64,000 nucleotides of DNA from Acidimicrobiia bacterium (GTDB lineage: Bacteria; Actinomycetota; Acidimicrobiia; Spongiisociales; JAENVV01). The notes beneath the pieces are model-generated. The model was not told the origin of the DNA. It saw only the letters and a list, made by a program, of their open reading frames with translations, and did no database searches. Where the stretch lies: contig JBFKVA010000002.1 of NCBI GenBank assembly GCA_041635475.1, positions 37,355 through 101,354 of the forward strand. The letters run 5' to 3'. Below, piece by piece: positions 1,901 through 26,325 of this stretch; the first letter of the stretch is position 1; every line of letters starts with the position of its first letter. Position numbers and translations under genes: made by a program.

Positions 1901-4102
1901 TCAACTCATGAACAGCCACTCGACCTCCTCACCAAGCAGGACGCGCACTTCCTCGGCGATTGCCGGGCTGTGAGCGAGCACCGGGTCGGCCTCGACGAGA
2001 GCGAACGCCTCGTTCCTGGCCGAGACGAGCAGGTCGGTGTCGCGCAGGACGTCACCCAGCCGCAGATCCCCGACGCCGGATTGCCTCGCCCCGAACACGG
2101 TGCCCTGGCCCCTGAGCGCCAGGTCGACCTCCGCCAGTTCGAAGCCGTCGGTGGTCCTGGTCATGGCAGCGATGCGTTCGACGGCTTCGTCCGTGGTCGG
2201 ATCGGCCACGAGCACGCAGGTGCCCGGGTGGAGTCCACGCCCGACGCGGCCGCGGAGCTGATGGAGTTGGCTGAGCCCGAACCGATCGGCGTTCTCGATC
2301 ACCATCAACGTGGCGTTGGGTATGTCGATGCCGACCTCGATGACCGTGGTCGCCACCAGCACGTCGATCTCCCCGTCCCGCATGCTCTCCATGACACCCT
2401 GCTTCTCGTCAGGTCGGAGCGCGCCGTGGATGAGCCCGACCCGGAGGCCGGTCAACGTGGCCGCCAGGCGTTCGTGCTCGGCCACCGCCGAGGCTGCTTC
2501 CACCTTCTCCGAGTCCTCCACGAGAGGGCACACGACGAAGACCTGGCGTCCGTCCCCCACCTCCTGTCGGACCCTGTCCCACACTCGATCCTCGTCGGTG
2601 GGAGCGACGGACACGGTCTCGACGGGCGTCCGACCGGGCGGCATCTCATCGAGGAGCGAGACGTCGAGGTCGCCGTAGAGCGTCATCGACAGGGTCCGCG
2701 GGATCGGGGTGGCGGTCATGATGAGGAGGTCCGGCTCGACGTCGCCGGCCTTTTCCTTGAGACTGACCCTTTGGTGGACTCCGAACCGGTGCTGCTCGTC
2801 GACGACGGCCGCCGACAGGCCCGCGAAGTGGACGCCCTCGGAGATGAGGGCGTGGGTGCCGACGATGAGGTCGATGCTTCCCGACTGCACGAGGTCGAGC
2901 AGCTCGCTCCTGGAGAGATCGTGGCCGGTGTTCACCCGTGCCGTCGATCGGGTGAGGAGCGCCACGGTGATTGCGCCCGCGGCGTCGCCGAACAGCGAGT
3001 CCATTCCGTGGCGGGGCCCGGTGCCCGGGGCCGGGTTCAGTCCGGCCCCCTCGAGGAGGTCCACCACCGACAGGTAGTGCTGTGTGGCCAGGACCTCGGT
3101 GGGGGCCATGACCGCCGCCTGGCGTCCACACTCGACCGCCGCCAGGAGTGCGCCGACCGCCACGACCGTCTTGCCCGAGCCGACCTCACCCTGGAGGAGC
3201 CGATGCATCGGGTGGGGCCGGGCCATGTCGGCGGCGATCTCGCCCATGACCCTTTGCTGGGCCCCGGTGAGTGGATACGGGAGTCCGGCCACGAACCGGT
3301 CGACGAGGTGACCATCGCCCCCATGGGCGAAACCGACCGCGTCGATCGATTTGCGCCACTTGGCAAGTGCCAGTGCGACCTCGATCCTGAAGAACTCGTC
3401 GAAGACGAGGCGGCGCCGGGCGTGGGTGACATCCTCGAGCGTGTCGGGGAAGTGGATGGTCGCGACGGCTTCGTCCCTACCGACGAGGGCGTGATCGGCG
3501 AGAATCGCCGCCGGGAGCGGGTCGGCGATTGGTCGCGATCTTCCGATGGCGTTGTGGACCGCCCGCCGGATGTGGCCCGGGCCGACGTCACCAACCGCGC
3601 CGTGGATGGGAACGATGCGCCCGGTGGTGAGCCCCTCGTTGGGCGAGGCCAGGACATCGGCGGCCGGTGACTTCATCTGCCGCTTCCCCCGGAACATCTC
3701 CACCTTCCCCGACAGGGCCACCTCTTGGCCCTCGGTGAGCTGCTGGGCCCTGAACGCCTGGTTGAACCAGGTGGCGGTGAGGATGCCACTCTCGTCGACG
3801 ACCGTGACGTCCACGATCGTCAGGTTGCGGCGTGGACGGCGGGTCCGCACCGAGCCGACCGTCCCCACCACCGTCACCTCCACCCCCACCGGCGTGTCCC
3901 CGATCAGGATCTTGCGGGAACGATCGATGTAGCGCCGGGGGGCATGGAGGAGGAGGTCGGCCACCGAGCCGATGCCGCCGGCGCGCATGGCGCGGCCGCG
4001 GGCGCCGGCCAGCCCCTTCACGGACTCGATCCCGACGGTCGCGAGGTAGGCGAGGCTCCGAGCGGTCGTCATCGGGGACATGGTGCCAGACGGCGCCGAC
4101 AT
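1901..4102 (-). CDS. recG: ATP-dependent DNA helicase RecG (about 733 aa; start chosen at the ATG at 4102, with alternatives at 4081 and 4072)
   Basis: It has the wedge-domain region (TATWFNQAFRAQQL), the helicase motifs GDVGSGKTVVA and DEQHRFGV, and the C-terminus typical of RecG. The N-terminal 100 aa of ORF 1901..4411 is Ser/Arg low-complexity and overlaps the upstream gene, so an internal start was chosen. Confidence 0.9.
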   Translation of the reverse strand: MSAPSGTMSPMTTARSLAYLATVGIESVKGLAGARGRAMRAGGIGSVADLLLHAPRRYIDRSRKILIGDTPVGVEVTVVGTVGSVRTRRPRRNLTIVDVTVVDESGILTATWFNQAFRAQQLTEGQEVALSGKVEMFRGKRQMKSPAADVLASPNEGLTTGRIVPIHGAVGDVGPGHIRRAVHNAIGRSRPIADPLPAAILADHALVGRDEAVATIHFPDTLEDVTHARRRLVFDEFFRIEVALALAKWRKSIDAVGFAHGGDGHLVDRFVAGLPYPLTGAQQRVMGEIAADMARPHPMHRLLQGEVGSGKTVVAVGALLAAVECGRQAAVMAPTEVLATQHYLSVVDLLEGAGLNPAPGTGPRHGMDSLFGDAAGAITVALLTRSTARVNTGHDLSRSELLDLVQSGSIDLIVGTHALISEGVHFAGLSAAVVDEQHRFGVHQRVSLKEKAGDVEPDLLIMTATPIPRTLSMTLYGDLDVSLLDEMPPGRTPVETVSVAPTDEDRVWDRVRQEVGDGRQVFVVCPLVEDSEKVEAASAVAEHERLAATLTGLRVGLIHGALRPDEKQGVMESMRDGEIDVLVATTVIEVGIDIPNATLMVIENADRFGLSQLHQLRGRVGRGLHPGTCVLVADPTTDEAVERIAAMTRTTDGFELAEVDLALRGQGTVFGARQSGVGDLRLGDVLRDTDLLVSARNEAFALVEADPVLAHSPAIAEEVRVLLGEEVEWLFMS

Positions 4103-14727: not shown

Positions 14728-15089
14728 CCCACAGCGTCACTGCCGCCCTTGCCGTCGTCGTCCTCGCCCTTGCCGCGTGCGGAGGGGACGACCTCTCCCT
14801 CATCGACGACCCCGGCGCCCTCGAGGCGACGTACGAGTACACCGTGCCGGCCGGGACCGGCGAGAGGTTCGACCGCGGCGAACCGATCGAGATCCTTCCC
14901 CAGACGCTGGAGGCCAAGGTCGGCGAGGTCATTCGCATCGTCAACGAAGACGACCGCGGACACGTCGTCGGGCCCTTCTACGTCGGGGCCGGGGAGACCC
15001 TGGTGCAGCGGTTCGCCTCACCTGGTGTCTTCCAGGGTGCATGCACGGTCCACCCGTCGGGCCAGTTCGAGCTCAGGGTCTCGCGATGA
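14724..15089 (+). CDS. small secreted lipoprotein (121 aa), unknown function; candidate metal-binding partner of SCO
   Basis: The ATG at 14724 overlaps the SCO stop (ATGA). MTHSVTAALAVVVLALAACGGDD has a lipobox, and the mature part contains His and Cys residues (GHVVGPFYV...GACTVHPSG). Confidence 0.6.
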   Translation: MTHSVTAALAVVVLALAACGGDDLSLIDDPGALEATYEYTVPAGTGERFDRGEPIEILPQTLEAKVGEVIRIVNEDDRGHVVGPFYVGAGETLVQRFASPGVFQGACTVHPSGQFELRVSR

Positions 15090-16087
15090 CGCCCTCGTCG
15101 TCGACGAACCGTCGTCGGCGCCGAGGCACCTCGACAGCTCTCCTCGCCCTCCTGCTGAGCGGCACCGCCCTCCCGGCCGCGGCCGATCCCGCCGGACCGA
15201 CCGACTACCGCAACGAGGTGATCGGTCTCGACCCGGCCACCGACGGAGCGGAGTTCTCGATCGTCGGCGGAGATGCGTTCCTGCGGGTGGAAGTGGAGGC
15301 CGGGACGGAGCTGGTCGTCATCGGGTACTTCGGTGAGCCGTACCTCAGGATCCTGGCCAACGGCACCGTCGAGGAGAACCAGATCTCGCCCTCCGTCCCC
15401 CTCAACACCGACCGGTACGCCGACGACGTCGAGATCGACCGTGACCAGGCACAGCTCCCACCCCATTGGCAGGTCATAGGCAACGGTGGGGCCTGGGCGT
15501 GGCACGATCACCGCGTCCACTGGATGTCACGCACGCCGCCGCCCGGACGGTCCCCCGGCGACGTGATCTATGGGGAGGTCTCGATCCCGGTCGTCATCGA
15601 CGACGTCGAGACCCGGGTGAGCCTCTCCCTCACCTGGGTGGAACGGCCGGCGCCCGTGTGGCCCATCGTGGGGGCCCTCGTGGGTGCGCTCCTCGTCGGG
15701 TGGCGCCGTCGCCGGCACCTCCCCGCCCTCGGGCTCATCGCCGCCGCTGCCCTCGTGGTGGGGGTCCGGCAGTATGCCTGGCTGCCACCCGAGACCGACC
15801 CGAGCGTCCTCCAGTGGGCCGTTCCCGTCGCTGCCCTCGCCTTCGTGGGAGCCGGGCTTCTCCGCCCCCGGGTGGCGGCGGTGGCCGGCGCAGTCGCCGC
15901 GGCCGAGATCGCCGGGTGGGGCCTGTGGCGCCGGGAGAGCATGTGGAAGGCGATCCTGCCCACCAGCGCACCCTACGCCCTCGATCGGGCGGTGACCGCG
16001 GCCTGCCTGGTCGGCGGCCTCACGAGCCTCGTCCTCCTCTTCATCGTTCGTATCCGCACCAGCCCGGCCATCGAGAGGACCACCTGA
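15086..16087 (+). CDS. secreted/membrane protein (about 170-aa signal-peptide-bearing extracytoplasmic domain plus C-terminal multi-TM region), unknown function
   Basis: The ATG at 15086 overlaps the previous stop (ATGA). MTPSSSTNRRRRRGTSTALLALLLSGTALPAAADP is a signal peptide. His-rich stretches (AWHDHRVHW) and a hydrophobic C-terminus follow. The N-terminal 103 aa of ORF 14777..16087 overlaps the previous gene. Confidence 0.6.
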   Translation: MTPSSSTNRRRRRGTSTALLALLLSGTALPAAADPAGPTDYRNEVIGLDPATDGAEFSIVGGDAFLRVEVEAGTELVVIGYFGEPYLRILANGTVEENQISPSVPLNTDRYADDVEIDRDQAQLPPHWQVIGNGGAWAWHDHRVHWMSRTPPPGRSPGDVIYGEVSIPVVIDDVETRVSLSLTWVERPAPVWPIVGALVGALLVGWRRRRHLPALGLIAAAALVVGVRQYAWLPPETDPSVLQWAVPVAALAFVGAGLLRPRVAAVAGAVAAAEIAGWGLWRRESMWKAILPTSAPYALDRAVTAACLVGGLTSLVLLFIVRIRTSPAIERTT

Positions 16088-17394: not shown

Positions 17395-18198
17395 TCAGGA
17401 CCCGTCGGTGGTCGCCACGTCGGCGAAGGCCGGGCAGATCTCCTGGAACGAGCACCAATCGCACAGCTTCGAGGGGCTCGGCGGGAAGTTGTCCGCCTCG
17501 ATGGCGGTCTCGATCCGCTGCCACAGGTTGGCCATCTTCTGCTCGGTGGCGTCGAGGGCATCGTCGGTGATGGCCAGCCGGTAGAGCGTGGGGCCGTTGA
17601 GGTAGAGCAGCCGGACCTCCACTGGGGTGCGGCCGGTTCTCTTGCGGATGAGCGCGGCGTAGATCTTGAGACCGAAGAAGGCCGTACCGGCGTAGCGCTC
17701 CGGGGGGGCCTTGCCCGTCTTGTAGTCGACGATGATGAGGTCCCCGTCCGGGGTTTCGTCGAGCCGATCGAGGATCCCCCGAATCGTCACCCCGTCGGTG
17801 ATCTCCTCGAGCATGTCCAGTTCCCGTTCGACGGGTGCGATGAGTGCCGGGTCCTCGACCGTGAAGTAGTTGCGGAGGAGCTCCATGCTCGCCAAGCCCC
17901 AGGCCCGCTCCTCTTCGACCGACTCGAAGAGGCCGAGGTACTCCTCCTCGCTTCGCATCTCGGTCCAGGCGGCGCGGAAGAGGTCGTAGAGCCGCTCGGC
18001 GTTGCGCTCCTCGGGGTCGAGGTCGAAGAGGTGCTCAAGGGCGGTGTGGGCTGCGGTGCCCCTGGCCTGGTGGACGGTCGTCGGCTCCGGGAGTCGGAGA
18101 ATCGTCTTGTACTCGAAGAGCTTCGGGCACTGGATGAAGTCGCTGGCGCGCGATGGTGAGAGCCGTTCGAGGACGTACCGTTGGGCGGTGTCGTTCAT
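17395..18198 (-). CDS. PD-(D/E)XK (RecB/Cas4-like) nuclease with a four-cysteine cluster (267 aa)
   Basis: The start is the ATG at 18198..18196. The N-terminal Cys (FIQCPKLFEY) plus the C-terminal CDWCSFQEICP resemble Cas4/AddB Fe-S ligands. DLIIVDYKTGK is RecB nuclease motif III. The region upstream of 18198 in ORF 17395..19083 is Pro/Ser/Arg junk. Confidence 0.8.
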   Translation of the reverse strand: MNDTAQRYVLERLSPSRASDFIQCPKLFEYKTILRLPEPTTVHQARGTAAHTALEHLFDLDPEERNAERLYDLFRAAWTEMRSEEEYLGLFESVEEERAWGLASMELLRNYFTVEDPALIAPVERELDMLEEITDGVTIRGILDRLDETPDGDLIIVDYKTGKAPPERYAGTAFFGLKIYAALIRKRTGRTPVEVRLLYLNGPTLYRLAITDDALDATEQKMANLWQRIETAIEADNFPPSPSKLCDWCSFQEICPAFADVATTDGS

Positions 18199-19057
18199 GT
18201 CGGTGACGTTACCGCCGGGGTACGACGGAAACCGTCTTCTGTCGAACCCGGGGCCCCCACGGCGGTGGGCATGGGCCGTCCCGACGCCGAGCGCGAGCAA
18301 CACCATCGACGGTCCGGTTTGCGCCCGCCCCCACCGGCGACGGTCGACTCGCGAAAACTGCGCACGGAACGCGAAAACTCTTGGGCCTTTCCCGACCACA
18401 GTGGGGGATTCGTCGCGTATGGTTCCCCCGTCGAACTCGGGAGACCGAGGGAGACCGCACCTCCCGGTGCTCCCTTCGGGGACGTCGGGAGTGGGACCGG
18501 CCCTCTGGGCGCATCGGCTTGCCGGGGCGACCGGAACGGACGGGACCGAACGGGTGGACGGCAAGGGCGCGAGCCCGTCGAAAGCCCGGCCTGAGGGCCT
18601 CGGCCCGACGGCATGAGCGCCGGACCGGCTCCTCGGAGCCACGGGCCGGATGCTCGGGGCGATGCCGAGACGCACCGCCCGACCGCCGAGCGGCGACCGA
18701 AAGGAGACCGCACGGAGGATCCGCCCGGGGCGGATGGCTCGGACCGAGAGGAATGGGTCACCTGCACCAGCGGAGAAGCCCGGAAGGCGCTGGCAACGGT
18801 GTCGGAAGGGTTGGCCAGGCCACACGAGTGGTGAAGCCTGGGCCCTGACGGGGGCCCCTCCCGCAAGGGAGTGTCGACGGCGGTCGGCGAGGGCAGCACT
18901 TGGTGGCGGCCAAGAGTTGGGAGAAGGGCTGACGGGCCCCGAGACCCAGCGGCCGGAGGCCCAGCAATGGGCGGACGGCCCGGGAACCCCGAGAGGGTGG
19001 ACGCTGCAAGGCGGAAGCTTCCTCGGGGTTTCCCGCGTGTGGATAGCCTCCGGGAGG

Positions 19058-19546
19058 ATGGCACCCGGCCGCACCCCCAACACCGCAGCCGTGCGCGTCC
19101 TGCGTTCGGCCGGGATCGCGTTCGAGCCGTTCGTCTACGCCTACGCCGCCCACGGGGGAACGCGACAGGTGTCGGAGCGGTTCGGGATCGACGAGCATGC
19201 CGTCATCAAGACGCTCATCGCCGAGGATGAATCCCGGACCCCGATGTGCGTGCTCATGCATGGCGACCACGAGGTCTCGTTGCGCGCCCTGGCCAGGGCA
19301 CGGGCCGCCAAGAAGATCCGTCTGTGCACCACCGGGGCCGCGTCCCGCCATTCCGGGTACCTCATCGGGGGGATCTCGCCGCTCGGTCTGCGCACCCCGA
19401 TGGACGTCCTGGTCGAGCACACGATCCTGGACCTCGAGCGGTCCTACGTCAACGGCGGTGCCAGGGGGTTCGTCGTCGGCCTGGCCACGTCGGATCTACT
19501 GTCGGTACTCCCCCACGTCGCGGTGGAGGTCGGCCTCCGCCGCTGA
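19058..19546 (+). CDS. ybaK: Cys-tRNA(Pro)/Cys-tRNA(Cys) deacylase YbaK
   Basis: MAPGRTPNTAAVRVLRSAGIAFEPFVYAYAAHGGTRQVSERFGIDEHAVIKTLIAED...HGDHEVSLRALARA...GGISPLG is a YbaK/ProX deacylase-domain sequence. The start is the ATG at 19058 with GGGAGG directly upstream (tight spacing, so the start is somewhat uncertain). Confidence 0.8.
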   Translation: MAPGRTPNTAAVRVLRSAGIAFEPFVYAYAAHGGTRQVSERFGIDEHAVIKTLIAEDESRTPMCVLMHGDHEVSLRALARARAAKKIRLCTTGAASRHSGYLIGGISPLGLRTPMDVLVEHTILDLERSYVNGGARGFVVGLATSDLLSVLPHVAVEVGLRR

Positions 19547-20122
19547 TGCCTCTGCCATCGCGCGCAGGACCCCATGGAGGCGCGAGTCGCGGTACCTCGT
19601 CTCGGCCAGGGGCAGAGGAACGTGCAGGCGGGTCTCCTCGCCGTCGCGCGCCAGGGTGCCGCCCAGGTGCTCGAAGAGGTCGAGCATGGACTCGTTCTCC
19701 GACAGCACGTACGCGGTGAAGTACCGCACCCCGTTCTGCAGGGCGGTCTCGGCCAGGGCCTCGAGCAGGAAGGAGCCGACACCCTGGCCCTGCCACTCGT
19801 CCACCACCGTCACCGCGGCCTCCGCCACCTCTGGCCGGGTCGTGTCCCGCACGTACCGCGCCACTCCGACCGGCTGCTCCTCGCCGTCCTCGAGCACCGT
19901 GGCCCCCCACGCGAAGTGATCGCGGTAGTCCAGTTCCGTCAGATAGCGAAGCTGGTCGTCGGGAAGGTCGGACACGATGGTGTGGAACCGGAAGAACCGC
20001 GACCGTTCGGAGAGGCGGGCAAGGCCGGCCCGCAGCAGGTCCTTGTCGCCCCTGCCGACCGGACGGACCCGCAGTCGTGTCCCGGAAGGAAGGTCCACCT
20101 CGAGGGGTTCCGTCATACGCAT
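19496..20122 (-). CDS. GNAT family N-acetyltransferase
   Basis: VVDEWQGQGVGSFLLEALAETA is the Q/RxxGxG/A acetyl-CoA motif in a GNAT fold. Its 3' end overlaps the ybaK 3' end by about 51 bp (convergent). Confidence 0.8.
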   Translation of the reverse strand: MRMTEPLEVDLPSGTRLRVRPVGRGDKDLLRAGLARLSERSRFFRFHTIVSDLPDDQLRYLTELDYRDHFAWGATVLEDGEEQPVGVARYVRDTTRPEVAEAAVTVVDEWQGQGVGSFLLEALAETALQNGVRYFTAYVLSENESMLDLFEHLGGTLARDGEETRLHVPLPLAETRYRDSRLHGVLRAMAEASAAEADLHRDVGEYRQ

Positions 20123-20183
20123 ACGCTAGGCCGGTCCCGCCCCTCCCCCGGTTCTTGTCACACCCCCATGGCACAGTGGGTCC

Positions 20184-20291
20184 ATGACAACGATCGAACG
20201 CATCCTCGCCGATGGCGGCCTCCAGGTCACCGTGCTCCACGACGGGCCCAACGGTTGTCCGTGCTGCCCGCCGGAAGTCCTCGCCGCTTGA
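20184..20291 (+). CDS. candidate small protein (35 aa) with a CPCC motif, unknown function
   Basis: ATG...TGA in a frame different from adnA: MTTIERILADGGLQVTVLHDGPNGCPCCPPEVLAA. 28 of 35 third codon positions are G or C, consistent with coding in this genome. It lies in the 190-bp gap between the GNAT gene and adnA. It is below the ORF-track length cutoff. Confidence 0.3.
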   Translation: MTTIERILADGGLQVTVLHDGPNGCPCCPPEVLAA

Positions 20292-20311
20292 GCGGTACCC
20301 TCCGTCCCGCC

Positions 20312-23281
20312 ATGCCAGGACCCCCGATGCACGTCGAGCCGGAGGACTGGAACGCGGCGCTCGCCGACGTGGAGGGCCCCCAGCTCGTCGTGGGTGGACC
20401 GGGGACGGGCAAGACCGAGTTCCTCGCCCGCCGGGCGCGCCACCTCATCGAGGCCCGGGAGGTATCGGGCGGACGGGTCCTCATGCTCACGTTCTCCCGG
20501 CGGGCGGCCGCCGACCTCAGGACCAGGGTGGCCGGCTCCCTGGCCCCCGACACGACACCACCTCGCGCCTCGACGTTCCACTCCCTGGCGTTTCGCATTC
20601 TCGAGACCCATGCCATGCGGGTCCTCGGGTGGTCGAGGATCCCGGCGCTCCTCACCGGGCCCGAGCACGTCGGGGTCGTACGACGTCTCCTGGCAGATGA
20701 GCACCCCGATGACTGGCCCGTCGGGTTCCGCGACATGCTCACCACCCGGACCTTCGCCAAGGAGGTGACCGACTTCCTGCTCCGGGCCGCGGAGCGTCGC
20801 CTCGGACCAGACGACATCGGACGGCGGGCCACCACCCGCGCCGACTGGCGAGCGCTTCCCGCGTTCATGGACCGGGTCGCCACGGCGCTCGACGCCAAGG
20901 GACGGATGGACTACGCCACGGTGCTCTCCTCTGCGATCTCGGTACTCGACGACCCCACCACCCAGGCTGCCCTCGCCGAGGAGTTCCGGTACGTCCTCGT
21001 CGACGAGTACCAGGACACCACCGATGCCCAGGCCGCCCTGCTCCATCGCCTCGTCGCCGGCCACGGCAACCTCACCGTCACCGCCGACGTCGCTCAATCC
21101 ATCTACTCGTTCCGCGGCGCCGACCTCCACAACGTGGAACGGTTCGCGACGACGTTTGCGGATCTCGGCCCGGTCACGACCCGCACCCTCACGACGTCGT
21201 TCCGCGTGCCGTCCGCCATCCTCGGCGCGGCTCGCACCCTCGCCGTCTCCGACCTCCCCGGCGCGGCGGACGACGTCCGCCCGTCAGGGCCGGGCGGACG
21301 GGTGGACACGTACGTCTTCGACCAGCATTCGCATGAGGCCGAGTGGATCGCGGGCGAACTCGAACGACTCCACCTCGAGGAACGGATCCCGTACCGCCGC
21401 ATGGCGGTGCTAGTGCGGACGAAGCGGCGCCTCCTCCCCGAGCTCTCCCGGGCGCTCGAGCGGCGTGGGATCCCTCATGAGCGGCCCGACGCCAGGCTCA
21501 TCGACCACCCTGCGATCCGGGTGGTCGTCGACCTGGTCGAGCTGGCCGTGGGAACCGGCACCGCCGAGGACGACGAGCGCAGCCTTCGCCGGTTCCTCCT
21601 GGGTCCGCTGGCCGGCGTGCCGCTCGGCGTCGAACGCGGCATCGTCCGGGCACTTCACCGGGGTGAGGTGGGCCGCGACGACCTCATTCGGCGCCATGTG
21701 CCCGACGGTGGCCCCATCGCCGACCTCCTCGCCGATCCCCGCTGGGCGACCACCGGGTCTGCCGAGGATGGCTTCTGGCACGCCTGGACCAGTCTTCCCC
21801 AATGGATCCGACTGGCGCTCGATCCCGCCCGGGACGACTTCCGGGTCGCCTGGTCTTCGTTCTCCCAGGTCCTCGGCCGCCTGGCCGAACGCGATCCCGA
21901 CATCTCGCTGCGCGAGTTCCTCCACCTGGCCGGCCGTGACGAGTTCGAGGCCAGCCCTCTCCTTCGCTACTCGTCGGACGCCGACCGCCTGACACTCACG
22001 ACCCTCCACGCGGCGAAGGGGCTGGAGTTCGAGGTGGTCATCATCGCGGACGCCGTTGACGGGGTCCTCCCGGACCTGCGTCGGAGCTACTCGCTGCTCA
22101 ACACGAACCAACTCCACCCCGACCAGCAGGGAACGGCCCAAGCGCTCCGGTTCCGGGTCGAGGAGGAACGACGACTCGCCTACACGGCCATGACGAGGGC
22201 GACGACCCGCGTCGTGTGGACGGCCACCGGGGCCGGGATCGAGGAGACCGACGAGCGGCCCAGTCGCTTCATGTACGACATCGAGGGTGCCCCTCACCTC
22301 GGCCCACCGGTTCCGCGCGCCGGGCCCCCGGTCACAGGACTCGAAGCCGAGGCCCTCCTCCGACGGACGGTGTCCGACCCACTGGCCGCCCCGGCCGCCC
22401 GGCTGGCGGCCCTCCACGTGCTCGTCGACCGTCCACACCCGGCGCTGCGTCCGATCGAGTCGTTCGCCGGGGTCCGCCCCCGGGGGCCCGACCACGGACT
22501 CGTGCCCGACCAGGCCACGTTCTCGCCGTCGCAGGCAGCCGCCTTCGACTCATGTCCCCGCCAGTACGCATTCGGTCGCCACCTGGGAATCGGTGACGAA
22601 CCATCCGTCTACATGCACCAGGGCTCACTCATCCATCGGGTGGCCGAGATCCTCGATCGTCGAGTCCTGGACGACCCCGACCACGAACCGACCGTGGCCG
22701 AAGCCCTGGCGGTCCTGGACGAGGTGTTCGATCCGGCCGAGTTCGGAGGCGGGCCGTGGGCCGAGGCCTGGCGACGGCGCGCTGCCGACACGATCACCAA
22801 GCTCTTGGAACTCGCCCCCCAGGAAGGACGCGTCCTCCTGGTCGAACACAGTCTGGCCATGCGGCTGTCCGGCGAGACCTGGCGGGGACGAGCAGACAGG
22901 ATCGAACGACTGCCCGGCGGGGGGTTGCGCATCGTTGACTACAAGACGACCGGACAGGTGGCGAAGGTCGACGAGGCCGCCGGGTCCCTCCAGCTCGGCT
23001 TCTACGTCCTGGCGGCGTCCCAGGATCCCACCGTCACCGACCTCGGAACCATCGACGGCGCGGAACTCTGGTACCCGGCGGCACCCCCGCTCAAGAGGGG
23101 CTTTCCCACTCGCCGGCTCGACATGGACCTCGTCCCCCTCATCAGGGAGCGCCTCGTCGAGATCGCCCGGGCCGTTCGGGCCGAGGAGTTCCCACCCATC
23201 GTCAGCTCCCGGTGCCGGTCGTGCCGGGTTCGCCTTCTCTGCGACGAATGGCCCGAGGGGGAGGACGCCTTCACCCCATGA
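20312..23281 (+). CDS. adnA: UvrD-like helicase with a C-terminal RecB-type nuclease domain; AdnA-like subunit of the heterodimeric helicase-nuclease
   Basis: GGPGTGKTEFLARRA (Walker A), DEYQDTTDAQAALL, nuclease-domain motifs near the C-terminus (RIVDYKTTGQV) and the terminal Cys cluster SSRCRSCRVRLLC. The start is taken at the ATG at 20312 (alternative 20327). The upstream 246 aa of ORF 19574..23281 is Arg/Pro junk antisense to the GNAT gene. Confidence 0.8.
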   Translation: MPGPPMHVEPEDWNAALADVEGPQLVVGGPGTGKTEFLARRARHLIEAREVSGGRVLMLTFSRRAAADLRTRVAGSLAPDTTPPRASTFHSLAFRILETHAMRVLGWSRIPALLTGPEHVGVVRRLLADEHPDDWPVGFRDMLTTRTFAKEVTDFLLRAAERRLGPDDIGRRATTRADWRALPAFMDRVATALDAKGRMDYATVLSSAISVLDDPTTQAALAEEFRYVLVDEYQDTTDAQAALLHRLVAGHGNLTVTADVAQSIYSFRGADLHNVERFATTFADLGPVTTRTLTTSFRVPSAILGAARTLAVSDLPGAADDVRPSGPGGRVDTYVFDQHSHEAEWIAGELERLHLEERIPYRRMAVLVRTKRRLLPELSRALERRGIPHERPDARLIDHPAIRVVVDLVELAVGTGTAEDDERSLRRFLLGPLAGVPLGVERGIVRALHRGEVGRDDLIRRHVPDGGPIADLLADPRWATTGSAEDGFWHAWTSLPQWIRLALDPARDDFRVAWSSFSQVLGRLAERDPDISLREFLHLAGRDEFEASPLLRYSSDADRLTLTTLHAAKGLEFEVVIIADAVDGVLPDLRRSYSLLNTNQLHPDQQGTAQALRFRVEEERRLAYTAMTRATTRVVWTATGAGIEETDERPSRFMYDIEGAPHLGPPVPRAGPPVTGLEAEALLRRTVSDPLAAPAARLAALHVLVDRPHPALRPIESFAGVRPRGPDHGLVPDQATFSPSQAAAFDSCPRQYAFGRHLGIGDEPSVYMHQGSLIHRVAEILDRRVLDDPDHEPTVAEALAVLDEVFDPAEFGGGPWAEAWRRRAADTITKLLELAPQEGRVLLVEHSLAMRLSGETWRGRADRIERLPGGGLRIVDYKTTGQVAKVDEAAGSLQLGFYVLAASQDPTVTDLGTIDGAELWYPAAPPLKRGFPTRRLDMDLVPLIRERLVEIARAVRAEEFPPIVSSRCRSCRVRLLCDEWPEGEDAFTP

Positions 23282-26200
23282 CGTTCGTTCCCACCGCCGA
23301 GCAATCGAAGGTCCTGGCGGCCCAGCCGCCACTCCGGATCGCGGCCGGGGCGGGTACCGGCAAGACAGCCACGATCACGAGGGCAATCGTCGAACGAGTG
23401 CGCGACGGGAAGGTCCAGGCGGACCAGGTGCTGGGCATCACGTTCACCAACAAGGCGGCCGCGGAACTGGCCGGTCGCGTTCGGGCCGAGTTGGACGGCT
23501 CGACACCGATCGGCGTCGAGGCCGACATCCACACCTACCACGGGTTCGCCCATCGCCTCCTGGCCGAGTTCGGGCCACTCATCGGGGTCGAGCGCGACCT
23601 CACCGTCATCAGCCCGACCTACTCCCGCCAGATCCTCATCGACGCCATCACGTCCGGTGGTCCGTACGACCATCTACCCCTCCACAATCGGCGCCACCTC
23701 GTGCCGGACCTCGCCCGCCTGGCCGGGGCGCTCGGCGACAACCTCCACACCGCCGACACGCTCCTGGCCAATCCGATCGAGGACGACGTCGACCGGCTTC
23801 GCCACGAGATGGCCGAGGTCCTGGCCCGGTTCGAGCGTGAAAAGGAGCGGCTCGAGGTCCTCGACTATCCCGACCTGCTGCGCCTGGCCCATCGGCTGCT
23901 CACGCACCATCCGGCGGTCGTGTCCGAACTCCGGGATCGGTACCGCCTCGTCCTGCTCGATGAGTACCAGGACACCTCACCGGCCCAACGGATGCTGCTC
24001 CAGGCCGCGTTCGGGGGCGGGTTCCCGGTGATCGCCGTGGGCGACGCCGACCAGACCATCTACGAATGGAGAGGGGCGACGCTCGAGAACTTCGCCGACT
24101 TCCCCACCCACTTCCCGACGGCGGCCGGGACCCCGGCACCCTCCTTGCCGCTTTCTCTCAACCGGCGGTCGGGACAGTTGATCCTCGAGGTGGCAAACCG
24201 GCTCCGGTCCCACATCGACAAGTCGACGCGGCAGGACCTGACCCCGATCCCGGGTGCGCCCGTGGCCACCGTCACGGCGTCGTGGTACCGGACTGCCCGC
24301 ACCGAGGCGGATGGGATCGCCGACCTCCTCACCGGTGCCCACGACGAGGGCATCCCATGGCGGTCGATGGCCGTGCTCTTCCGCAAGAACGCCGACATCT
24401 CCCTCGTTCGCCAGGCCCTGGGGAGAGCCGAGATCCCGGCCGAGGTGGCCAGCATCGGAGGGCTGCTCGAGATCCCCGAGATCGTCGAGGTCCATGCCTG
24501 GCTCCGAGTCCTCGACGACCCCGGCGATTCCGCTGCGTTCGCACGGCTCATGTTGGGCAGCCGCTACCGACTCGGTATGGCCGACCTTCGACCACTCCGG
24601 GAGTGGGCCCGCCGTCCGGACGAGGATGAGTGGGGACCGCCGGTGAGCCCCCTCGAGGCAATCGACCACGTCGATCTCATCACCGACCTGTCGCCCGGGG
24701 CGGCCGCCGCCCTCCTCGACTTCCGCGCCCTCTACCGGCACCTCCTCGAAGCCGCCCAAGGGGTCAGCCTCGTCGAGCTCGTGCGCCGCGTGCTTGACGC
24801 CCTGGGGGCGTGGAGGGAGATCGAAGCCCTCCCGGCGGTCCAGGCCTTGTCGACCCGACTCAACGTGTACCGGTTCCTCGACCTCGCCGAGTCGTGGAGT
24901 CCACTCGAGGGGCGGCCGTCGCTCCCCGCGTTCCTCGACCACCTCGACCTCATGGCCGAGGACCAGACGGAGGAACTCGACACCGCCCGCATCTCGACGG
25001 AGGACGCGGTGACCCTCCTGACCATCCACCGAGCCAAGGGCCTGGAATGGGACGTCGTGTGTGTCCCCAACGTCACCGACCGCACCTTCCCGGCCGGCAT
25101 TCAGCGCACCGAGGACCCGTTCCTGTTCGCCCAGGAACTCCCCTTCGACCATCGGCTCGACCGATCATCACTCCCACCGATCACCGCCGCGATGGATCCC
25201 TCCGAACGCCGACGCCTCATGCGGGCGAGGCATGAGGCCCAGGAGTGGCGACTCGCCTACGTCGCGGCTACGCGGGCCAAGCTCGCCCTCCACGTCTCGG
25301 GGAGCTTCTGGTACGGCGTTCCCGAGCCCCTCAAGACACCCAAGAAGCCATCGGCGATCTTCGAAGCCGTTGCCACGGTGCCCGGGGTCGACGCCCGGGT
25401 CCTGGCCACCGAACCCGGTGACCGCCCCGTTTCCCTCCGACCCACTCCCGAACCGGGGGGCCCGGATCCGCTCTTCGGCCCCGAAGGATGGACGTCGGGA
25501 GCCCGGGCTGCCATCGCTCGTCCGGGCAGCCTCCGCGACATGGCGGGCACCCTCGGCGTCGCCAAGGAATACGATCGGGCCGTGAGCGACTTCCACGACA
25601 TGCTGTTCGCGCTCCCCGAGGCTCCCGACGACGAGGCCCCGGTCAAGCTCACGTCGGTGTCGGTGACCGGGCTCGTCACGTATCGACGGTGCCCGAAGCA
25701 GTTCTACTGGAGCGAGGTGGACCGACTGCCGCGACGGCCGTCCCGGGCGGCTCGCCGGGGCATCGAGGTCCATCGCCGCATCGAGCTCCACCATTCCGGG
25801 GCGGTCCCCATGGAGGATCTCGAGGCCACGGAGTACGACGACCCGGGCACCGGGGTCCCGGGATCCGCTCCGTTCGAGGCCTTCCTCGCCTCCCCCTACG
25901 CCGGTCGGCGCCCGTTCCTCGTCGAGACTCCATTCGAGCTGCGAATGGGAGCCGGCAGCATTCGCGGCCGGGTCGACGCGGTGTACGAATCCGATGGCTG
26001 GGAGATCGTCGACTTCAAGTCCGGCCGGCCGTCCGCTGACCCGACGATCGAGGTCCAGTTGGAGGCATACGCCCTGGCGGCCGACGCCGGCGCCCTCGCC
26101 GTGGGCCGACCACACAAGATCTCCGTGACGTTCGTCTTCCTCGGCGACGGTTTCGAACAGCGAACCCAGGTGGTCGATGCGGCCTGGCTCGAACGGGCTC

Positions 26201-26325
26201 GGGCGTCGGTGGAGGGAATCCTGCACTGCATCGACGGCGAGGAATTCGAGCCTCGCCCGTCCTCGTATTGCACCACGTGCGATTTCCTGCGATTCTGTGA
26301 GGAGGGTTCGGCATGGGAGCAGTAG
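23278..26325 (+). CDS. adnB: UvrD-like helicase with a C-terminal RecB-type nuclease domain; AdnB-like subunit
   Basis: The ATG at 23278 overlaps the adnA stop (ATGA). AAGAGTGKTATITRAI (Walker A), VLLDEYQDTSP, TIHRAKGLEWDVV, the nuclease motif EIVDFKSG and the C-terminus YCTTCDFLRFCEEG are present. Confidence 0.85.
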   Translation: MTFVPTAEQSKVLAAQPPLRIAAGAGTGKTATITRAIVERVRDGKVQADQVLGITFTNKAAAELAGRVRAELDGSTPIGVEADIHTYHGFAHRLLAEFGPLIGVERDLTVISPTYSRQILIDAITSGGPYDHLPLHNRRHLVPDLARLAGALGDNLHTADTLLANPIEDDVDRLRHEMAEVLARFEREKERLEVLDYPDLLRLAHRLLTHHPAVVSELRDRYRLVLLDEYQDTSPAQRMLLQAAFGGGFPVIAVGDADQTIYEWRGATLENFADFPTHFPTAAGTPAPSLPLSLNRRSGQLILEVANRLRSHIDKSTRQDLTPIPGAPVATVTASWYRTARTEADGIADLLTGAHDEGIPWRSMAVLFRKNADISLVRQALGRAEIPAEVASIGGLLEIPEIVEVHAWLRVLDDPGDSAAFARLMLGSRYRLGMADLRPLREWARRPDEDEWGPPVSPLEAIDHVDLITDLSPGAAAALLDFRALYRHLLEAAQGVSLVELVRRVLDALGAWREIEALPAVQALSTRLNVYRFLDLAESWSPLEGRPSLPAFLDHLDLMAEDQTEELDTARISTEDAVTLLTIHRAKGLEWDVVCVPNVTDRTFPAGIQRTEDPFLFAQELPFDHRLDRSSLPPITAAMDPSERRRLMRARHEAQEWRLAYVAATRAKLALHVSGSFWYGVPEPLKTPKKPSAIFEAVATVPGVDARVLATEPGDRPVSLRPTPEPGGPDPLFGPEGWTSGARAAIARPGSLRDMAGTLGVAKEYDRAVSDFHDMLFALPEAPDDEAPVKLTSVSVTGLVTYRRCPKQFYWSEVDRLPRRPSRAARRGIEVHRRIELHHSGAVPMEDLEATEYDDPGTGVPGSAPFEAFLASPYAGRRPFLVETPFELRMGAGSIRGRVDAVYESDGWEIVDFKSGRPSADPTIEVQLEAYALAADAGALAVGRPHKISVTFVFLGDGFEQRTQVVDAAWLERARASVEGILHCIDGEEFEPRPSSYCTTCDFLRFCEEGSAWEQ

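Follow-up and report, generated by a model that had tools for sequence, protein, structure and literature searches.

The 64-kb stretch of Acidimicrobiia DNA analysed here (64,000 nucleotides [nt], referred to as the window) carries a Cas4-like nuclease gene and a divergently oriented ybaK-type aminoacyl-tRNA editing gene, which are separated by the region 18199–19057. The original prediction, made from the sequence alone, described this region as purine-skewed, hairpin-rich and free of coding signal, and proposed that it is a structured non-coding RNA (ncRNA), a long structured 5' leader or a decayed gene. Both flanking genes are as it claimed (PF12705 for the nuclease, PF04073 for ybaK), and the ybaK ortholog of a related locus, L081, matches TIGR00011 YbaK_EbsC at 7e-42. 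The region does not stand as one unit: approximately 18350–19040 is a conserved element, whereas 18199–18349 is an unconserved spacer upstream of the nuclease gene. Within the element, approximately positions 18430–19036 of the plus strand probably constitute an independently transcribed, highly structured ncRNA gene with a predicted product of approximately 605 nt. The first of the three proposals is the one supported by conservation, strand-specific folding, 30 base pairs with compensatory changes, a promoter, a 3' terminal hairpin and convergent downstream genes.

The lack of coding signal was borne out. The codon-position GC difference is at most 0.16 over 18200–19000 (mostly 0.4–0.6 in the flanking genes), and 18196–19125 is the sole stretch of at least 330 nt in the window with a difference below 0.20. 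Two open reading frames (ORFs) cross the region on the minus strand, one of 562 amino acids (aa) that is continuous with the nuclease and one of 289 aa, because the antisense strand is pyrimidine-rich and poor in stop codons. None of the ORFs tested in the region, including these two, matches a Pfam family, and the 289-aa ORF has just two weak matches among 5.8 billion proteins. Insertions and deletions between close relatives are mostly 1 nt in length and break the frame, including those between relatives that are 81% identical (alignment A3). The purine skew of the plus strand is also present: G+A is 0.55–0.62 in 150-nt windows starting at 18425–18875, with GC skew and AT skew both positive.

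The hairpins listed in the original prediction were all recovered within 1–2 nt of where it had placed them: ctccc-GCAA-gggag (18858–18871), ccc-TTCG-ggg (18472–18481), cgcu-GCAA-ggcg (19002–19013), the self-complementary ggaagcttcc (19013–19022) and ccgcc-cggg-gcgg (18721–18733). The reported tandem of cgcgaaaact motifs needs to be corrected: the two copies exist (18350–18359 and 18370–18379), but they are not head-to-tail and instead have a period of 20 nt.

Conservation and folding of the element

Relatives were obtained via the closest homologs of the neighbouring nuclease, which belong to Acidimicrobiia metagenome-assembled genomes; the distribution described below was sampled around this one anchor gene, and individual loci are cited by L numbers. 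Searches of the region with blastn and nhmmer against 80 genome loci gave nothing significant except one weak nhmmer match in L002. With five relatives, 18409–19038 aligns at 72–82% identity (blastn; alignment A2); these alignments always stop at 19038 and usually start at approximately 18409–18413. Identity of the element is 70–81% over approximately 545–615 aligned nt, far above the 37–55% (saturated) at four-fold degenerate sites of the nuclease, glutamate dehydrogenase (GDH) and ybaK genes in the same genome pairs. Purifying selection thus acts on the element, at a strength comparable to that seen in the neighbouring protein genes. Only a few bases past the 3' hairpin the conservation ceases, short of the ribosome-binding site, and the next start codon is approximately 20 to more than 300 nt away. 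In L081, L082, L087 and L089, an inserted gene of 430–450 aa separates the element from the nuclease gene; the element therefore does not belong to the upstream region of the nuclease gene itself. Upstream non-coding lengths estimated for Streptomyces and other loci were too noisy and were not used.

Hairpin richness is above chance and is specific to one strand. The plus strand of 18425–19041 folds at -351.6 kcal/mol, compared to -318.9 ± 5.6 kcal/mol for dinucleotide shuffles (z = -5.9, none of 20 shuffles as good), while its complement folds at -310.1 kcal/mol (z = -1.6). The single-sequence fold has 16 hairpins, and the RNAalifold consensus of six sequences has 178 pairs in 29 helices. Standard pairs fill 94.3% of the cells of this consensus, versus 36–49% when the 3' partners are slid by 1–3 columns. 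The comparative search proposed with the original prediction shows that the element is conserved elsewhere and that 30 pairs (44 cells) remain paired through changes on both sides, versus 2–8 pairs in the slid control. In percentage paired, pairs with both-side changes, cells with both-side changes and covariation score, the observed values were matched by 0 of 500 shuffles; for further pair types, 11 of 500 reached the observed value. The consensus includes numerous conserved G.U pairs, which would read A.C on the complement.

Several substructures are listed in Table 1. The 5' hairpin is the same in all six sequences of A3, apart from one stem base and the GUAA loop of L081. In helices 20–22, 97.6–100% of cells are paired, with changes of CG to UA, UA to CG and AU to GC. 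The core GGGCU(G/C)ACGGGC of helices 24/25 is kept in L002 and L003 too.

Table 1. Coordinates of the predicted RNA gene, its promoter, selected substructures and the flanking genes (positions in the 64-kb window).
Feature	Position	Strand	Basis or remark
PD-(D/E)XK (Cas4-like, RecB-family) nuclease gene, divergent	17395–18198	-	PF12705 3e-40; NCBIfam matches
Upstream box 1, CGCGAAAAC, approximately -80 to -72 from the predicted start	18350–18358	+	Register shared family-wide
Upstream box 2, CGCGAAAAC, start-to-start spacing from box 1 exactly 20 nt	18370–18378	+	Spacing shared family-wide
Degenerate -35, ACCACA	18395–18400	+	Register; TTGACC or TTGACG in other clades
-10 hexamer TATGGT (TAnnnT) within clade-invariant GCGTAnnGTT	18418–18423	+	Invariant columns of A2
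Predicted ncRNA transcript, approximately 605 nt	18430–19036	+	Conservation limits, consensus structure, strand asymmetry; both ends predicted
5' hairpin GUC-GA-ACUCGG-GAGA-CCGAGG-GA-GAC, GNRA loop, tandem G.A internal loop	18430–18455	+	Alignment A3
Three adjacent tetraloop hairpins, helices 20–22, loops GACG/GCAA/GGCG	18840–18889	+	Compensatory changes
Nested helices 24/25, GUUGGG...GGGCU-GACG-GGCCC...CCCAGC	18916–18950	+	Three compensatory pairs, 93–100% paired
3' hairpin GGGAACCCCGAG-A-GGGU-GGA-CGCU(GCAA)GGCG-GAA-GCUU-C-CUCGGGGUUUCC	18982–19033	+	Family-defining; U run 19029–19031
ybaK-type aminoacyl-tRNA editing gene (tRNA_edit)	19058–19546	+	PF04073 1e-19

Promoter, 3' hairpin and distribution of the RNA family

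Transcription appears to start near G18430, approximately 7 nt past a sigma-A-type -10 (TATGGT). Counted from the first of the two upstream boxes, the -35 lies at +45 and the -10 at +68; both this register and the start-to-start box spacing of 20 nt are identical in 16 of the 16 distinct promoters listed. The box CGCGAAAAC occurs twice in the 64-kb window, with 0.21 occurrences expected. Across 98 loci, the pattern CGCGAA-N14-CGCGAAA is confined to promoters of the RNA, and the looser CGCGAA-N14-CGCGAA yields one stray, in L048, across 132 loci. In more distant members, a consensus promoter scanner called TTGACC-17-TACATT and TTGACC-17-TAAATT in L002 (both copies of the RNA gene) and TTGACC-18-TATATT in L094, at the sites expected from the register and nowhere else in the regions tested.

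The 3' hairpin has the arm CCCCGAGAGGG pairing towards CUCGGGG, followed by a short U run; UUU(U) follows the hairpin in all members. Its CCCGAGAGGG and CUCGGG segments are invariant in 12 loci of different clades (alignment A4), in which 96.9% of cells are paired (with slid partners, 35–66%) and compensatory changes occur at three pairs. A covariance model of this hairpin (R1) scores 80 bits in the window and 38–86 bits in family members, always on the sense strand. Outside the family it scores no more than 27 bits in approximately 75 nuclease loci of Streptomyces and other actinobacteria. The hairpin probably serves as an intrinsic terminator. A terminator scanner called an inner sub-stem of the L098 hairpin and none elsewhere, because the apical part exceeds its loop limit of 8 nt and the U run is short. 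The 7–8-mers CGAGAGG, GUGGACGC and GCGGAAG of the hairpin, which resemble the sarcin-ricin/domain VI part of 23S rRNA, were judged to be chance matches; several are expected against a 2.9-kb rRNA.

Members of the family are recognised by the double box together with the R1 hairpin, and range from 152 to 780 nt in length with 4–21 hairpins. The family was found at every Acidimicrobiia locus sampled (16 distinct loci), and no credible match was seen among approximately 75 other actinobacterial loci; the latter figure refers to nuclease-linked loci. In 20 IMG/VR viral contigs picked for their hairpin pattern, only generic hairpins were present (R1 scores of 24 bits or less) and the double box was absent. 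A metagenome pattern scan for the 3' hairpin returned five loci, one of which was rejected: the match at L095 620–648 is a chance occurrence in GAG-repeat-rich, coding-like sequence, with neither an R1 match nor a double box. Alignment of short forms across clades (A5) is poor outside the ends, and the family-wide model is that of the 3' hairpin alone.

Many genomes have a short and a long copy, each behind the same promoter boxes; in the 64-kb window the element is single-copy. L002 and L003 contain a long copy (535–650 nt) and a short copy (approximately 275 nt) with a DUF2332 gene between them. In L099–L102, a 152-nt copy is followed in tandem by a 592-nt copy, and in L099 each has its own promoter and hairpin. 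L106 has a divergent pair of 154 and 320 nt with boxes approximately 50 nt apart, the short copy pointing at the nuclease gene. Further forms are 233 nt (L103), 272 nt (L094 and L097), 278 nt (L001), 351 nt (L109), 424 nt (L096) and 780 nt (L098). Some long forms contain tandem units of hairpin modules (56 nt × 2.9 in L002 and 18 nt × 2.8 in L098), and at least part of the growth of these forms therefore occurred by duplication. A separate perfect 18-nt tandem repeat, ACAAACCGAGCCGGGAAA (4.1 copies, L099 7577–7649), directly follows the short copy of the RNA and continues into Ns, which represent either masked sequence or a gap in the assembly. A 1.5-kb gap in L103 was considered as a possible additional RNA and ruled out, as it is coding.

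All members share a similar composition, with a purine fraction of 0.53–0.60. Among approximately 270 predicted loops, the most frequent are UUCG (53), GCAA (37), GAAA (32), GAGA (30), GACG (18) and CUCG (14); almost all are stable tetraloops, and loops containing GGA are rare. Relative to dinucleotide shuffles, three octamers (GCUUCGGC, CCGCAAGG and CCGAGAGG) are enriched 14- to 26-fold, and GCUUCGGC and CCGAGAGG each occur 24 times (0.4 and 1.1 expected, respectively). Unpaired residues outside loops are 50% A and 33% G (83% purine), which accounts for the purine skew of the plus strand; RNAs with tertiary structure typically have unpaired residues rich in A. In most members, a GG-GNRA-CC hairpin begins 1–11 nt past the predicted start, with stem sequences that differ by clade and loops of GAGA, GAAA, GCAA, GUGA, GUAA or GCGA.

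Neighbouring genes

The gene downstream of the element varies among ybaK, bPH_2/SHOCT, DUF2332, a cytidylate-kinase-like gene and the nuclease itself. It is convergent in L082 and L098, where the element must therefore make sense as a stand-alone transcript. A co-oriented gene encoding bPH_2 and SHOCT domains is the next gene directly downstream in five lineages: L094 (2518–3213), L099 (6103–6687), L103 (4887–5522), L106 (6296–6901) and L109 (9648–10241); in L109 the order is RNA, bPH_2, ybaK. The 430–450-aa inserted gene mentioned above is located at 2602–3957 (plus strand) in L081, 2656–3957 in L082, 2606–3937 in L087 and 1102–2406 in L089, and is absent from the window. The L081 copy, the only one tested, has a clear codon-position GC bias and matches no Pfam or NCBIfam family.

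In three loci, public gene annotation has "hypothetical proteins" over the RNA gene: L082 1756–2496 (minus strand), L092 2072–2695 (minus strand) and L109 8809–9522 (plus strand). These are likely annotation artefacts, arising because stop codons are scarce in GC-rich, strand-skewed sequence. Elsewhere in the window, 19574–23281 (plus strand) encodes an AdnA/AddA-like fusion of a UvrD helicase and a PD-(D/E)XK domain, and a second ORF at 23212–26325 (plus strand) overlaps it by 70 nt; relatives have two such genes adjacent to each other. Together these are probably an AdnAB-type end-resection pair beside the stand-alone nuclease. A 436-aa ORF upstream of the GDH gene (14777–16087, plus strand) matches no Pfam family.

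Interpretation and comparison with known RNAs

No known RNA class was identified at the locus. Rfam 15 (4227 models, including RNase P, tmRNA, SRP, 6S, T-box, raiA, ROOL, GOLLD, OLE and HEARO) gave no match in the 64-kb window at gathering thresholds, three noise matches in 17900–19400 at E ≤ 10, none of which is plausible for a bacterium, and no match in eight other family loci at E ≤ 0.1. ARAGORN found no tRNA or tmRNA in the window or in six family loci. These scans, the first of which had been suggested with the original prediction, agree with its failure to find RNase P or tmRNA motifs. Literature searches for Acidimicrobiia ncRNAs, for 6S in Acidimicrobiia and for the box sequence gave nothing relevant. 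We regard the RNA as a new family within a known kind, that of bacterial structured ncRNA genes, which is not described in Rfam 15 or in the literature searched. Its unusual features are the expandable array of tetraloop hairpins and the signature dual-box promoter.

Comparison shows the RNA to be a chain of short hairpins with GNRA or UUCG-type caps, separated by A/G-rich linkers and bulges. The two phased boxes, centred at approximately -56 and -76, may recruit a dedicated activator or, in the manner of an UP element, the C-terminal domains of the RNA polymerase alpha subunit, and would give the promoter its strength and its regulation. The hairpins at either end would protect the RNA and so stabilise it. 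We tentatively suggest a trans-acting role, in which the RNA would be abundant, bind protein and sequester or scaffold its partner; specific recognition would fall to the invariant 3' hairpin, and the body would be a tunable array in which the number of hairpin modules sets capacity or architecture. In the window clade, read-through of a weak terminator may also feed ybaK. More speculatively worded, and held with the same reserve, the family may represent a previously unrecognised, class-wide regulatory system: one or two tetraloop-hairpin array RNAs per genome, expressed from the dual-box CGCGAAAAC-N11-CGCGAAAAC promoter, growing by module duplication, and either titrating a protein or self-assembling in the niche occupied elsewhere by Csr/Rsm, 6S or Ms1.

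Several observations weigh against an independent ncRNA gene or against its proposed function. The existence of the transcript, like its start and its 3' end, is deduced from sequence. In the window, the promoter has no recognisable -35, and consensus promoter and terminator scanners called neither at the element. The full-length consensus comprises six sequences, whose relatedness inflates the shuffle controls, and the long-range closing helix (18456–58 with 19035–37) consists of 3 bp and is invariant. The 3' hairpin is approximately 20 nt from the start of ybaK on the same strand, with no separate promoter called between them, and in most loci a bPH_2/SHOCT or ybaK gene is co-oriented 20–100 nt downstream. 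As for protein binding, no motif that resembles a known protein site recurs among the predicted loops.

The gene arrangement favours the second proposal of the original prediction: a long cis-acting 5' leader, attenuator- or riboswitch-like, in which the 3' hairpin is a regulated terminator for the bPH_2/SHOCT-ybaK genes. The element is co-oriented 20–100 nt upstream of ybaK (window clade) or bPH_2/SHOCT (L094, L099, L103 and L109), a co-oriented bPH_2 gene lies approximately 320 nt downstream in L106, L109 has both genes in series, and in the window ybaK follows so closely that a separate promoter for it would not fit. As read from the sequence, the 5' arm CCCCGAGAGGG could also form an alternative CCC-GAGA-GGG mini-hairpin. 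A leader is difficult to reconcile, however, with the convergent genes in L082 and L098, the tandem short and long copies of L099 (each with its own promoter and hairpin), the short copy of L106 that is directed at the nuclease gene, or the DUF2332 and cytidylate-kinase-like genes found downstream elsewhere. Five-fold variation in length would be atypical of a leader, the conserved block stops at the hairpin before reaching the ribosome-binding site, and no Rfam cis-regulatory family matches, T-box included. Copies in tandem or divergent arrangement, and the diversity of the genes downstream, weaken the leader proposal; we retain it as the main, though unlikely, alternative. An ncRNA and a leader could both hold if the RNA is stable and the terminator leaky.

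A more specific version of the protein-binding idea would make the RNA an Acidimicrobiia equivalent of 6S or Ms1, both of which bind RNA polymerase. 6S is reported to be missing from Actinobacteria, in which Ms1 has a related role (PMC9130861). Like these RNAs, the element is a seemingly abundant, promoter-driven RNA gene, here in an actinobacterial lineage, with a sequence that is poorly conserved beyond close relatives; its promoter looks strong and dedicated, the two paralogs per genome recall 6S-1 and 6S-2, and the short forms (152–350 nt) are of comparable size. The folds differ: with 4–21 local hairpins in a chain, there is no long irregular duplex of approximately 180–200 nt with a large central bubble, and the RNA is not 6S-like in this respect. 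Ms1, which is defined by synteny with HAD-IB hydrolase and oxidoreductase genes and is approximately 300 nt long, with a central bubble and two short terminal hairpins (PMC9130861), was rejected on synteny and fold; the length range here is also much wider, at 152–780 nt. No HAD hydrolase is present in the gene tables within 4–8 kb on either side of the element, and the Ms1 marker genes are absent from them; the neighbours are the nuclease, ybaK, bPH_2/SHOCT, GDH and AdnAB-like genes. With no Rfam match even at permissive thresholds and lengths of up to 780 nt, we consider a 6S or Ms1 counterpart improbable, more so than a leader.

Two further explanations have very little left to recommend them. 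A non-functional hairpin-rich spacer, or a repeat of the REP/MITE type, would account for the numerous short GC-rich palindromes and for the module duplications of some members; it is highly improbable given one copy in the 64-kb window, the same gene neighbourhood across a bacterial class (with varying immediate neighbours), identity far above neutral, a promoter and 3' hairpin in fixed register, and strand-specific structure with G.U pairs. The decayed gene of the original prediction, or an unrecognised Pro/Arg/Ser-rich extension of the nuclease, could explain the 562-aa and 289-aa minus-strand frames and the ORFs placed by gene callers in L082, L092 and L109, but is ruled out for practical purposes by the missing codon-position GC bias, the 1-nt indels at 81% identity, the lack of Pfam families, the two weak protein matches and the compensatory base-pair changes, which the decay of a coding gene would not be expected to produce.

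Soils, fresh water, oceans and wastewater all harbour abundant Acidimicrobiia. To our knowledge, genetics has hardly been applied to them, and none of their regulatory RNAs has been characterised. The family would offer a new entry point into their gene regulation through its promoter signature, strong purifying selection and expandable architecture. A new covariance model would be useful for annotation given the spurious ORFs called over the RNA gene, and the dual-box promoter could serve as a searchable tag for other genes under the same control. Should the RNA prove to be a sponge for protein or an assembly of RNA alone, it would be an independent example of a bacterial modular RNA built by hairpin duplication.

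Comparison with other known systems reveals partial likenesses. As in T-box leaders, the element of the window precedes a tRNA-related gene (ybaK) and has a terminator-like hairpin at its end, and the GGGUGGAC sequence in the hairpin of the window clade recalls the T-box core, GGGUGGNACC. We reject a T-box reading: there is no Rfam T-box match (E ≤ 10 in the region, E ≤ 0.1 in relatives), no Stem I or specifier features were recognised, and many copies have no tRNA-related gene downstream of them. T-box-like sensing of tRNA through UGGA was also rejected, as the UGGA in the internal loop of the hairpin is not kept family-wide.

With the large "ornate" bacterial ncRNAs ROOL, GOLLD, OLE and the raiA motif, the RNA shares a length of several hundred nt, a covariation-supported structure and restriction to one lineage; its GNRA tetraloops and A-rich unpaired residues suggest that it too may have a tertiary fold. 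Those RNAs have a fixed multi-junction core, in contrast to the chain of simple hairpins, varying in number, that is seen here. The present family also differs in its signature promoter, its lack of an Rfam match and its location in Acidimicrobiia chromosomes and not in the 20 IMG/VR contigs.

The design appears to be closest to that of the sequestering RNAs CsrB/CsrC and RsmX/Y/Z of Gammaproteobacteria. These too are stand-alone genes with a variable number of repeated stem-loop modules and several paralogs of unequal length per genome, and the end of the RNA described here is likewise intrinsic-terminator-like. In both, the promoter is preceded at constant spacing by a conserved sequence, which is the GacA/UvrY box in the Csr/Rsm systems and the double box in Acidimicrobiia. 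The loops of the present family are of the GNRA/UUCG type and not A(N)GGA, and its 3' hairpin is invariant and sequence-specific. The likeness is an architectural analogy only, with no relationship in sequence or in Rfam.

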